Assembly: GCA_964645485.1 (NCBI GenBank)
Contig: CAZXZO010000003.1
Location: forward strand, 33,667 to 62,256
From: an uncultured Candidatus Poseidoniales archaeon
GTDB taxonomy: Archaea > Thermoplasmatota > Poseidoniia > Poseidoniales > Thalassarchaeaceae
Length of the DNA: 28,590 nt
Direction of reading: 5' to 3'
A model generated the notes under the pieces. The model saw only the letters and a program-made list of their open reading frames with translations, was not told the DNA's origin and did not search any database. The translations under genes and the position numbers were made by a program. Of the stretch, positions 2,625 to 6,478 are shown one piece after another. The stretch's first letter is position 1; each line of letters begins with the position of its first letter.

Positions 2625-3938
2625 ATGTCAACCACAGTTACTGATGGATATTTTATCACCCCAGGTGAAAAGATCGAACTATCTGGAGATGCAGGTACAG
2701 GCGTGACCGAAGTTGATGGCACACTTATCGCCACTCAAGTTGGAGTTGTGTCTCTGAAAGATGGCTCAGTTTCTGTTTCTTCTCAAACTGATGGACCACG
2801 TACCCCAGTTGTTGGTGATGTTGTGATTGGGCAAGTTAGTAGGTTACAAAACAAAACTGCTGAAATCAAAATATTGCACGTTGAAGGCACCTCTTTTAGA
2901 GACCTGCCTGCAGAACAATTGTTTGGAGATATATTCGTCTCTGAAGTAGTAAATCGATTTCTTCCGGCTCCAGGTGACGCAATGCGAATGAATGATGTGA
3001 TACGTGGTGAAGTACTGCAAGTCAATCCAATCATGAAACTCACAACCAAGCCAAAGCCACGCTATGGTGTTCTACATGCTGCTTGCCCTGCTTGTGGAGA
3101 AATTCTCTCTCCAAGCGATGAAAAAGATGATTTCAATGTCGCTTGTGGTCGTTGTGACTATACTGCTTTCCGAGCATTAGCTGATGATTACGGTCATGGT
3201 TTCTTTGAGGAAGGAAGTGGATTTGATTCCCTAAACCGTGGCGGTGAGAGGTGGGATTCTGATGCAGAAGCTCGTCTTTCCCATGACGGCTCCCGCCCCT
3301 ATTTATCTCCCCTAGCAGACTATCGCAGAGGCACTGTTCACGAAATACCAAAGAAATTCCTCGGCCGAGGAGGTGGCGGTGGTAGAGGACGCGGTGACAG
3401 ACCACGCCGTGAGATGCACAAAACCACGTGCACACTTTGTTCAGACAAGTGTGAAGTACCATTCAAACCAACACCTGGGAAGCCAATTCGTTGCCGACCA
3501 TGTATGGAAAAAATTGAGAATAGCGAGGCTACACCTGATGAGTTGGCAGCCGAAAGAAAAATCCTCCTCGCAGCAAGAGATGCAGCACAAGAAACAGCCG
3601 GATTCAAGATGTTCATCGGTGGTGTTCCTTACGAAGTGAACGAAGAGGAACTAACTGCTTTATTCGCTGAACATGGAGCATTGAAGGAAGTGCACATCGC
3701 TACCGACCGTGAAACCGGAAAGAGCAAAGGATTCGCATTTGTTACTTACGCAAGTCATGCTGACGGGAAGAAAGCCCTTCCCCATCTAAAAGGCCTCAAA
3801 CTTGGTGGCCGGAAGTTGACTGTTCAAGAAGCAAAATCAGGTGGCGGTCGCGGTGGCGGCGGTCGCGGTGGTGGACGCAGTGGTGGTGGCCGTGGGGGAA
3901 GAGGCGGCAACCGTGGTGGCCGAAACGACCGACGCTGA
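2625..3938 (+). CDS. csl4: Exosome cap subunit Csl4 fused to CxxC-x17-CxxC Zn finger, RRM and RGG tail
   Basis: NTD (FITPGEKI), S1 (PVVGDVVIGQV...DVIRGEV) and Zn ribbon (CPAC..CGRC) define Csl4. These are followed by CTLC-x17-CRPC, RNP2 MFIGGV, RNP1 KGFAFVTY and a Gly/Arg tail. ATG 2625 follows a GGAG SD-like motif. Confidence 0.88.
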   Translation: MSTTVTDGYFITPGEKIELSGDAGTGVTEVDGTLIATQVGVVSLKDGSVSVSSQTDGPRTPVVGDVVIGQVSRLQNKTAEIKILHVEGTSFRDLPAEQLFGDIFVSEVVNRFLPAPGDAMRMNDVIRGEVLQVNPIMKLTTKPKPRYGVLHAACPACGEILSPSDEKDDFNVACGRCDYTAFRALADDYGHGFFEEGSGFDSLNRGGERWDSDAEARLSHDGSRPYLSPLADYRRGTVHEIPKKFLGRGGGGGRGRGDRPRREMHKTTCTLCSDKCEVPFKPTPGKPIRCRPCMEKIENSEATPDELAAERKILLAARDAAQETAGFKMFIGGVPYEVNEEELTALFAEHGALKEVHIATDRETGKSKGFAFVTYASHADGKKALPHLKGLKLGGRKLTVQEAKSGGGRGGGGRGGGRSGGGRGGRGGNRGGRNDRR

Positions 3939-4013
3939 AATTTGAGAATGCCTACAAGTTAGGCCGAACCTATCACAACCAATGACCTATCCCGCACAAG
4001 TGGAGGGTTTCAT

Positions 4014-5759
4014 TTGGGTTGGTTAGTCATCGATGGTTATGAGGATGAACCTGCTGCTTTTGGTGTACCTCCTTACATTGGATTCCACATCCGTTATGTT
4101 TGCGGAGTTTTGGAATCAAGGAACATTGACTATGATTATGTGACAATTGATGATTGGCGACTTGGCAACCGACCAGACCTATCCAGTTGTGATGGAATAG
4201 TGCTTCTGGCAGGAGCAATTGTTCCCGGGAAATATCTACGCGGCACGCCTATTTCACTTCGAGAAACAGATGAATTACTGAGAACTGTTCCACGCCACGC
4301 CCCTCTAATCGCTGGTGGCTGGGCTATCAGAGGCTGGCGACAACAAGGTTGGACTCCCTTGAGAAGTAACCTATTTTTGTGTGTGCAAGATACTGATGCA
4401 ACTCTCAACCACTTTCTAGAAAAAGGAGAATTCAAGCACCAAAGAAGAACCACAGAACAATGGAATGAGTGGGCAAAACACGGCGCGTTGAGTAAGGCTG
4501 TTGGAGAACACCCAGACCTATTTAGTAAAAGAGGAGATGAAAATTACCCCGGTCCATTGACCTACGAAGTTGAGGTTTACCAAGGCTGTGTTCGATACAA
4601 AAGAGGTTGTAAATTTTGTATAGAGCCAAAGAAAGGAGTACCTATTTTCCGAACACCTGAAAAAGTGATTGAAGAAGTGAAAATTGCTGTTGAATCGGGC
4701 GTGACCAACGTCAGATTAGGTGGGATGACAGATGTTTACACTTACATGGCAGAGGGAGTTGTTGAACTAGAATATCCACAACCAAACCCTGAACCAATCG
4801 CCAAATTATTGCATGGCCTGAGAGACCTTGATGGCCTTGAAATTCTGCATACAGACAATGCAAATCCAAGTATCATCGCTGAAAATCTAGAGTTAGCCAG
4901 TGAAATTACCAATACACTTGTTGAAACTCTGAGTGATGGAAGCGTGTTGTCTTTTGGACTAGAATCAGCTGACCCAACTGTTCACGATGCAAATTGGTTA
5001 AATTGCGATACGAATCAATTAAAAATTGCAGTGAGGCATATCAACGAGCATGGGCGCAAACGTGGTGCAAGAGGGCTTCCTCAACTACTTCCCGGACTCA
5101 ATTTCATTGCCGGTTTGAATGGTGAAACCACTAATACTTACAATATGAATAAACAGCTACTCCAAGAAATGAAGAACGAGGGTTTGTGGCTTCGACGCAT
5201 CAATATCCGCCAAGTTGAAGGCGAGGGATTTCAAGAAATCCCAGAAGTTGAATTCCGAGAATTCAAACAATGGGTAAGGGACGAAATTGACGGCCCATTG
5301 TTAGAAGAATTGTTTCCATTAGGGCAACGACTGAATGCGGTAAGATGGGAGAGTCATGATGAACGCATTCGACTTCCTCACAACATAACTGATGAAAGTC
5401 ACAGAAGTGAGGAATGCCGCGGGAAATCTGGCATCACCTTTGGAAGACAGATTGGTGCCTATCCAATTTTAGTTGGAGTCCCGTACCACATTCCGTTAGA
5501 ATCCATCTCTGACGTTATTGTTACTGGTCATGGCAAACGATCTATCTCCGCAGTAGAAGCAAAACTCAATCTCAACACTGTTAGTCAGAAGCAACTTCAG
5601 GCAATCCCTGGAATAGGAGAAAAAACAGCGTGGAGTCTAATTAGTGAAAGAGTGAAGAGAAAACACAAAGGAGACTCTTTTTCATCCTTAGAAGATGCCT
5701 TTGAATCAATAAATTTGGTAGCATCAGAACTAGCAAAAAAAATATTGGAGGTAGAGTGA
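4014..5759 (+). CDS. Radical SAM protein with C-terminal helix-hairpin-helix (COG1031-like)
   Basis: N-terminal IDGYEDEPAAFGVPPY; Fe-S motif CVRYKRGCKFC (Cx6Cx2C, 4587-4619); C-terminal LNLNTVSQKQLQAIPGIGEKTA HhH. TTG start after GGAGG. Confidence 0.85.
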   Translation: MGWLVIDGYEDEPAAFGVPPYIGFHIRYVCGVLESRNIDYDYVTIDDWRLGNRPDLSSCDGIVLLAGAIVPGKYLRGTPISLRETDELLRTVPRHAPLIAGGWAIRGWRQQGWTPLRSNLFLCVQDTDATLNHFLEKGEFKHQRRTTEQWNEWAKHGALSKAVGEHPDLFSKRGDENYPGPLTYEVEVYQGCVRYKRGCKFCIEPKKGVPIFRTPEKVIEEVKIAVESGVTNVRLGGMTDVYTYMAEGVVELEYPQPNPEPIAKLLHGLRDLDGLEILHTDNANPSIIAENLELASEITNTLVETLSDGSVLSFGLESADPTVHDANWLNCDTNQLKIAVRHINEHGRKRGARGLPQLLPGLNFIAGLNGETTNTYNMNKQLLQEMKNEGLWLRRINIRQVEGEGFQEIPEVEFREFKQWVRDEIDGPLLEELFPLGQRLNAVRWESHDERIRLPHNITDESHRSEECRGKSGITFGRQIGAYPILVGVPYHIPLESISDVIVTGHGKRSISAVEAKLNLNTVSQKQLQAIPGIGEKTAWSLISERVKRKHKGDSFSSLEDAFESINLVASELAKKILEVE

Positions 5760-6478
5760 TGGAAACTCTTGAGGAAGCGGCAAAATCACTTTCCGATGCC
5801 TGCAACAATCTTACTCCTAAGTTGAGTAAAACAGTATCTTGGATTTACAATCCTCTTGATTACGCGTGGGAAGTACACCACCAATACCTAAGAAAATACG
5901 GTGACTTGGGTTGCAAGACTATCTTGCTAGGAATGAACCCCGGGCCTTGGGGAATGGGACAAACAGGTGTGCCATTTGGAGATGTAAACAAAGTAACAGA
6001 TTACCTTGGACTGACTGGAAATGTAAGTCAGCCAGAAAAATTGCACCCCAAACGACCAGTGATTGGCATGGAATCTACTAGAAACGAAGTCTCTGGAACA
6101 CGCTTATGGGGGATTCTGGAGGATACTTTTGGTTCTGCTGAAAAGGCCCATGCGAAATTGTTCGTGGTCAACCATTGTCCGCTATTGATGTTTGATGAAA
6201 ATGGAAGAAATCTCACGCCTGACAAAATAAGTGGGCCAAGTGCCAAGAAATTACTTGAGATTTGTAATTTGCATCTAAGGCAAGTGGTAGAAATTCTTGG
6301 GGCAACACGAGTGATTGGTGTCGGTGCTTATGCCGAAAAACAAGCAACCAAGGCTCTTGCCGGAATTGATATTGAAATCAAAAGGATTCCACATCCTTCG
6401 CCAGCCAGCCCATTTGCCAATAGAAATGGTGGGGCAGACTGGCGCCATGAAGTAAAGAACGTACTTTCTAAATTGTGA
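5759..6478 (+). CDS. smug1: SMUG1-type (UDG family 3) uracil-DNA glycosylase
   Basis: YNPLDYAW, GMNPGPWGMGQTGVPFG and HPSP motifs. The ATG overlaps the upstream stop (TGATG, 5757-5761). Confidence 0.92.
   Translation: METLEEAAKSLSDACNNLTPKLSKTVSWIYNPLDYAWEVHHQYLRKYGDLGCKTILLGMNPGPWGMGQTGVPFGDVNKVTDYLGLTGNVSQPEKLHPKRPVIGMESTRNEVSGTRLWGILEDTFGSAEKAHAKLFVVNHCPLLMFDENGRNLTPDKISGPSAKKLLEICNLHLRQVVEILGATRVIGVGAYAEKQATKALAGIDIEIKRIPHPSPASPFANRNGGADWRHEVKNVLSKL

Follow-up and report, generated by a model that had tools for sequence, protein, structure and literature searches.

A 28,590-nucleotide stretch of DNA (the window) from an uncultured Marine Group II archaeon of the family Candidatus (Ca.) Thalassarchaeaceae, order Poseidoniales, phylum Thermoplasmatota, encodes a complete Csl4, the exosome cap protein, whose reading frame continues into a zinc finger, an RNA recognition motif (RRM) and an RGG tail. 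Sequence comparison points to a Csl4 cap subunit onto which RNA-binding modules have accreted, and we put at roughly 70% the probability that the protein serves as the sole Csl4 cap subunit of the exosome, with a C-terminal RNA-binding arm that catches substrate beside DnaG. An earlier note on this DNA had described the anatomy (Csl4, Gly/Arg patch, finger, RRM and RGG tail), and every one of its coordinates holds on re-reading of the frame. The features are as follows, with amino acid (aa) positions and the basis of each assignment in parentheses.

2625..3938, + strand: coding sequence of the Csl4 fusion (single open frame, 437 aa plus stop)
2652..3194, + strand: Csl4 core, aa 10-190, comprising N-terminal domain, S1 domain and Zn ribbon (NF034126)
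3084-3155, + strand: Csl4 Zn ribbon, CPAC...CGRC, four Cys (motif)
3195..3362, + strand: linker, aa 191-246, specific to the order Poseidoniales (alignment and ratio of nonsynonymous to synonymous substitution rates, dN/dS)
3363..3515, + strand: zinc-finger microprotein module, probably captured, aa 247-297 (profiles and alignment with free microproteins)
3363-3410, + strand: Gly/Arg patch (composition)
3402-3419, + strand: P-R-R-E-M-H motif (motif)
3429-3503, + strand: CxxC-x17-CxxC finger, CTLC-x17-CRPC (motif)
3516..3605, + strand: helical spacer, aa 298-327 (AlphaFold2)
3606..3833, + strand: RRM domain, aa 328-403 (RRM_1)
3609-3626, + strand: RNP2, MFIGGV (motif)
3726-3749, + strand: RNP1, KGFAFVTY (motif)
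3834..3935, + strand: RGG tail, disordered, 34 aa (composition; AlphaFold2 predicted local distance difference test score, pLDDT, <50)

The frame opens with an ATG at 2625, preceded 10 nt 5′ by GGAG (2611-2614), and closes with a TGA at 3936-3938; homologue N-termini align at this ATG and not at a TTG at 2538 further upstream. Its parts follow one another as Csl4 (aa 10-190), linker, Gly/Arg patch plus finger, helical spacer, RRM and RGG tail. The Csl4 assignment is supported by NCBIfam NF034126 (99.1 bits, cut-off 90), which aligns aa 10-190 with profile positions 2-179 of 180, and by an AlphaFold2 model of the fusion protein, built on 38 homologues and compared with known folds by Foldseek. 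Core residues in this model mostly reach a pLDDT of 83-93, and aa 227-258 and 406-437 are disordered. The top Foldseek match is the archaeal exosome Csl4 2ba1_A (E value 6.7e-16, template modeling (TM) score 0.63 on the target), and Csl4 chains of yeast and human rank next. All four cysteines of the Zn ribbon (C154, C157, C174 and C177) are invariant among the homologues aligned.

The same architecture recurs far beyond this genome. A species-level scan with one genome per species yielded 205 relatives, and motifs were counted in the best 80 of these 205. Residues 1 to about 405 are covered in one piece in these 80, whose titles read Ca. Thalassarchaeaceae, Ca. Thalassarchaeum, Ca. Poseidoniales or Marine Group II (MGII) and which include three isolates with single-cell-genome-like names. 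The single frame from Csl4 to RRM, open here as the earlier note had read it, was recovered in 78 of 80 loci, with finger and RNP1 in one frame; the remaining two are cut by a contig end, both motifs still being there. Hundreds of public protein clusters of 420-450 aa, from independent projects, share the fusion architecture under names as varied as "Csl4", "CxxC-x17-CxxC domain-containing protein" and "hypothetical protein". As judged from its sequence and recurrence, the fusion is a real, conserved gene, neither a chance nor an assembly product. Open frames of 1020 aa in one genus were examined as a possible longer fusion and rejected, as they consist of two same-frame open reading frames (ORFs) parted by a single stop. 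In that genus a radical-SAM ORF directly follows the stop of the Csl4 fusion, in the same frame and without a spacer (4129-5850 and 2788-4128, respectively, of a locus from that genus).

An even sample of 400 Thermoplasmatota genomes was then used to place the fusion within the phylum. Of 36 genomes from the window's family, 35 carry the full-length form; the combination of Csl4, finger and RRM for which the earlier note had suggested an architecture search across archaeal genomes is thus the norm of that family. The sister family, which we take from GTDB taxonomy to be Ca. Poseidoniaceae (MGIIa), encodes in 57 of 58 genomes a Csl4 whose identical type of linker leads into two RRMs and a Lys/Arg-rich tail, without the finger. 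In the sister order (presumably MGIII; one family sampled), Csl4 is a plain protein of about 185 aa and the RRM is a separate gene, a frame of about 100 codons giving about 85 aa from the first Met and scoring above the NF058537 cut-off. The Csl4 matches listed for the rest of the phylum sit in frames of about 200 aa. Within this sampling the fusion is the norm throughout the order Poseidoniales, each of the two families having its own version. The earlier note had allowed that the fusion might already be the well-characterised norm of its lineage: a norm it is, but full-text literature searches turned up no description of a natural fusion of Csl4 with an RRM or with this finger, and none of RRM proteins from Marine Group II.

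Selection on the individual segments was gauged by comparing the window in turn with each of 13 orthologues and taking dN/dS for segments with unsaturated dS. Values were 0.08-0.12 for the Csl4 core, 0.02-0.09 for the linker and 0.04-0.09 for the RRM. The finger, at 0-0.03 among close relatives, gave the lowest values of all segments, and the helical spacer proved the least constrained, with 0.03-0.15 among close relatives and 0.4-0.5 (at most 0.49) at greater distance. Ratios far below 1 in every segment thus point to purifying selection on all parts and indicate that the extension is translated, with the finger under the tightest constraint.

The finger (aa 262-296) belongs to a family that elsewhere in the phylum is encoded almost exclusively by very small genes. 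It is matched by TIGR04272 (40.8 bits, cut-off 36) and PF23477 (39.9 bits, cut-off 27) and is predicted by AlphaFold2 as a hairpin plus helix, with a pLDDT of about 80. PF23477 occurs in 242 of 401 Thermoplasmatota genomes, nearly always as tiny free genes; in the window's class its matches are confined to the Csl4 of the window's family, one weak match aside. Twenty free finger genes were read, each encoding a protein of 48-65 aa that begins with a Gly/Arg-rich segment and runs through a P-R-E-M-H motif into the finger, and their products were aligned end to end with the fused segment of 19 orthologues. Residues 247-297 of the fusion match whole free proteins of other Thermoplasmatota, with 35-44% identity over the region compared, and a Met, the four Cys, P-F-x-P, a Pro and a Lys are invariant in fused and free fingers alike. 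Because the alignment runs end to end from the Gly/Arg patch through the finger, the two form one unit, apparently a captured whole microprotein; the earlier note had placed both correctly, though as separate features. Zinc binding by the fused finger is putative, extrapolated from its M. mazei homologues: the microproteins A00184 and A01980 bind zinc by inductively coupled plasma mass spectrometry, and M. mazei CxxC-x17-CxxC microproteins have been detected at the protein level, with a guessed role in transcription (PMC12704099, the sole paper found on this finger family). Tandem forms of the free proteins also exist, one with two copies joined by a Gly/Arg spacer (518-1084, - strand, in a relative's locus) and another with three copies followed by a long Ala/Lys-repeat tail. 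Large open frames around some free fingers were discarded as candidates, being just stop-to-stop frames that hold small finger genes or the two-copy tandem.

The linker that joins Csl4 to this module is common to both Poseidoniales families, sister-family matches extending to aa 254-270. Alignment of homologues reveals an invariant L-N-x-x-G-x-R-W motif (3231-3254) and invariant D232 and R234. The Csl4 of the sister order ends directly after the residues that align with aa 183-190, and the linker is absent there. No match to it was found in Pfam, PDB sequences or Atlas. In the AlphaFold2 model the pLDDT is 78-86 at aa 200-220 and falls below 50 from about aa 227.

Beyond the finger, one helix is predicted at aa 304-325 (pLDDT 81-86), a spacer without counterpart in the free microproteins. 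The RRM is canonical: RRM_1 (PF00076) matches aa 330-398 with 67.9 bits (cut-off 20.7), and the model has the order beta-alpha-beta-beta-alpha-beta (pLDDT 81-86) and superimposes on the hnRNP A18 RRM 5tbx_A with a TM score of 0.90 and a root-mean-square deviation of 1.0 Å. RNA binding by this domain is predicted from the RNP1 aromatics, F370 and F372, which the homologues conserve. NF058537, a profile for the bacterial-type Rbp regulator with a cut-off of 100 bits, scores the fused RRM at 75.2 bits, the two-RRM protein of the sister family at 102.6 bits and the free RRM of the sister order at 113.9 bits, which suggests that the fused RRM is related to the Rbp type but diverged. In the RGG tail, which the earlier note placed at 3837-3935, 19 of the final 34 residues are Gly and 9 are Arg, and a 15-nt tandem repeat lies at 3843-3871. 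Among orthologues the tail varies from about 10 to >60 residues; this variation and the tandem repeat suggest slippage.

Since the finger module corresponds to a whole free microprotein, the arm appears to have been built through the capture of whole small genes. The best explanation of the comparisons is in-frame capture of a 48-65-aa finger microprotein and of an RRM gene of about 85-100 aa. The sister order and several further families, though not most, have free RRM frames of 80-160 aa (140 of 401 Thermoplasmatota genomes). The earlier note had called RRM-Gly-rich proteins typical of bacteria and eukaryotes; given this spread, RRM proteins are not foreign to the phylum. The free RRM genes read in the sister order stop shortly past the domain. 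Gly/Arg-rich tails are carried by many small RRM proteins of the Rbp type, and for this reason the RGG tail may have come in with the captured RRM protein. A tree of 84 RRM columns puts the fused RRMs on one side, except for one long-branch copy and with weak support, and groups the free Thermoplasmatota RRMs together (Shimodaira-Hasegawa-like approximate likelihood-ratio test, 80-91); most of its forks are open, and the alignment is too short to order finger insertion against second-RRM duplication or to name a donor. To look for a ready-made finger plus RRM module elsewhere, the whole library was searched with aa 255-405; multi-RRM proteins dominated the output, and its best 150 matches held only fused homologues, fragments and one tandem-finger protein. 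Co-occurrence of free fingers with Csl4 across families is loose, several Csl4-bearing families having no finger match, and no support is drawn from it.

The genome encodes the partners that a Csl4 subunit would need. In this 1.94-Mb draft (55 contigs, 82% complete) the fusion gene is the sole Csl4 match above cut-off, the sole RRM and the sole CxxC-x17-CxxC finger. A proteasome-alpha/SBDS/rrp4/rrp41/rrp42 operon lies on another contig (contig 7), with full-length matches for rrp4, rrp41 and rrp42 (E values 8e-43, 4e-92 and 2e-71), all under the strict equivalog cut-offs. Archaeal DnaG is encoded as well (NF003108, 332 bits, cut-off 300), its C-terminal domain included. Core exosome and DnaG are thus present, and as no second Csl4 was found, the fused protein has to be the Csl4 of the cap if the cap uses Csl4 at all. 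DnaG was detected in 119 of 121 genomes of the phylum; alignment of its C-terminal domain holds across the order and extends to some families without the fusion. The idea that the arm replaces DnaG was therefore rejected: DnaG is present above cut-off and its C-terminal domain is conserved in the order, so the arm would add to DnaG instead of replacing it. In addition to Rrp41 and Rrp42 the genome encodes, on contig 19, a bacterial-type RNase PH (1108-1932, - strand, of the locus read there; TIGR01966, 243 bits, cut-off 141.5).

In the archaeal exosomes that have been solved, the N-terminal domain of Csl4 anchors on the Rrp41/Rrp42 ring, with the S1 domain lining the pore and the Zn ribbon on the outside (PMC3672285, PMC4227792). 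With the Zn ribbon outside, a C-terminal extension would point away from the ring. It was because this end points away that Hou et al. (2014) placed the N-terminal RNA-binding domain of DnaG on the C-terminus of S. solfataricus Csl4; the resulting Csl4-NT chimera assembled on the ring, gained poly(A) binding and preference in vitro, and degraded poly(A) and an A-rich native tail fastest (PMC4227792). By the mechanism we propose for the natural fusion, the C-terminus of Csl4 at the cap periphery would continue as a flexible RNA-binding arm made up of the conserved linker, the Gly/Arg patch with the zinc finger, the helical spacer, the RRM and the RGG tail. Such an arm would offer two folded modules of nucleic-acid-binding type, with disordered Arg/Gly segments before the finger and after the RRM. 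Up to three arms per exosome could bind single-stranded RNA, concentrate it locally at the S1 pore and, acting alongside DnaG, alter the selection of RNAs for degradation or tailing and the rate of either. That the protein assembles into the cap, that its arm binds RNA and that substrate choice shifts in consequence are what we infer, partly by analogy. The earlier note had likewise proposed an exosome cap with its own RNA-recruiting module, a proposal that is partly supported here and would be our best explanation as well.

Several points weigh against an RNA-binding arm on the cap. Production of the full-length protein, its assembly on the ring and its binding of RNA are predictions for an uncultured organism. 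No solved structure resembles the finger module, a candidate treble clef (the best Foldseek E value is 4, and the best Z of 3.6 in the VIA-wide comparison is noise), nor did a PDB sequence search with linker plus finger return a match. RRMs and zinc fingers can also make protein-protein contacts, and the conserved linker could just as well be a protein-docking site. These last points feed an alternative that we regard as unlikely, in which the arm is a docking or regulatory module that binds a protein partner or the ribosome, or folds onto the S1 pore as a gate. The linker (aa 195-246) is indeed conserved in both families and constrained like the core with no sign of an RNA-binding fold, and treble-clef-type fingers, like RRMs, are known as protein-interaction modules. 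However, RNP1 and RNP2 are canonical with their aromatics conserved, Gly/Arg- or Lys/Arg-rich segments lie beside the modules in both family versions, and the free finger homologues have Gly/Arg-rich ends, one tandem form even carrying an Ala/Lys tail typical of nucleic-acid binders.

Alternatively, the protein might act mostly off the exosome as a general, cold-inducible Rbp-like chaperone of RNA, with co-expression with Csl4 as the sole gain from the fusion. Its RRM falls within the small Rbp type of prokaryotes, judging by its NF058537 score and by the sister-order free RRM that passes the cut-off, and the nearest free look-alikes, of about 105-115 aa, are named "cold-inducible RNA-binding protein" by their sources. 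We nevertheless think this improbable, as the genome holds no other Csl4 and the protein must serve the cap if the cap uses Csl4, as the Csl4 core is fully conserved down to its Zn ribbon, and as two family-specific architectures both retain the arm on Csl4. It is very unlikely that the long frame is processed, or read from an internal start, to give separate Csl4 and RRM polypeptides: although the disordered segments (aa 227-258 and 406-437) would be open to proteases and Met329 sits where free RRM proteins begin, that residue is Leu in most orthologues, the family keeps no separate RRM or finger gene, and spacer and linker are under purifying selection. An assembly chimera or frameshift joining two genes has a negligible chance of being right, having in its favor only the draft status of a 55-contig genome and no positive sign; the same frame in 80 species-level loci, three single-cell-like isolates and hundreds of protein clusters speaks against it, as do dN/dS values far below 1 across the junctions.

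An RNA-recruiting arm on Csl4, if correct, would provide a natural archaeal parallel to the separate adaptor complexes of eukaryotes and to the artificial fusion of Hou et al. What is new here is the finger module as a whole free microprotein, the separate genes of the sister order, the finding that DnaG is kept and the connection with the engineered Csl4-NT fusion. The fusion also offers a lead to the roles of two orphan groups, the zinc-binding CxxC-x17-CxxC microproteins, which are widespread in Thermoplasmatota and abundant in Methanosarcina, and the free archaeal RRM proteins. Since whole versions of both are fused to Csl4, a Rosetta-stone reading would make the free proteins unrecognised cofactors of the exosome cap or of its RNA substrates that became permanent subunits in Marine Group II, a suggestion we advance tentatively and hold to be doubtful. 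Owing to inconsistent gene names, surveys of exosome genes can miss or mislabel the fusion. In surface seawater, Marine Group II ranks with the most abundant archaea, and none of its members is in culture; its RNA decay machinery is consequently known from sequence alone.

Gene order around csl4 is conserved (247-2548 of the window upstream of it). The gene directly upstream, for a 218-aa class-I methyltransferase, has the same place in the sister family and also in the sister order, and on the downstream side both Poseidoniales families have a radical-SAM/helix-hairpin-helix gene. Upstream, here as in the sister family, there is also a gene for an acidic, Pro-rich protein that matches no family. 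A 69-bp unit is repeated 2.2 times with 98% identity at 1334-1482, between ORF 247-1341 and ORF 1492-1815, and both strands are open across this repeat. ORF 1492-1815, between the repeat and the methyltransferase gene, encodes 107 aa with a zinc-ribbon-like CxxC...CxxC N-terminus and has no NCBIfam match.

Compared with canonical archaeal Csl4 (A. fulgidus, PDB 2BA1; S. solfataricus; NF034126), the fusion has the same N-terminal domain, S1 domain, four-Cys Zn ribbon and fold, and rrp4-rrp41-rrp42 and DnaG are encoded alongside it in this genome; the difference lies in about 245 additional C-terminal residues, namely linker, zinc finger, RRM and RGG tail, where canonical Csl4 in this phylum stops at about 185-200 aa. 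The sister-family version shares the Csl4, the linker, the neighbor genes and the RRM type but has a second RRM in place of finger and spacer and a different conserved C-terminal end; PF23477 was matched in only 1 of its 58 genomes, weakly. Free CxxC-x17-CxxC microproteins (TIGR04272/PF23477; M. mazei A00184 and A01980) are homologous to the module from end to end, with the Gly/Arg-rich start, P-R-E-M-H, the same Cys spacing and a V-P-F-x-P-t-x-G-x-P core. They are genes of their own of 48-65 aa, whereas the module here sits within Csl4 and has diverged, scoring 40-45 bits against 75-80 bits for free copies.

In eukaryotes, RRM and zinc modules deliver RNA to the exosome cap within NEXT (RBM7, ZCCHC8 and MTR4) and TRAMP (Air1/2, Trf4 and Mtr4), and the fusion resembles them in the principle of bringing RNA to the cap through such modules. 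NEXT and TRAMP are separate complexes around the Mtr4 helicase, and the fusion has no helicase part. The analogy with eukaryotic RRM/RGG exosome adaptors drawn in the earlier note thus survives as functional likeness and not as homology, the finger here being of another family. The engineered Csl4-NT fusion is artificial, comes from a thermophile, bears another RNA-binding domain and lacks zinc finger, linker and RGG tail, but it too carries an RNA-binding domain on the C-terminus of Csl4 and is the nearest functional test of the design that Poseidoniales appear to have reached by gene capture.

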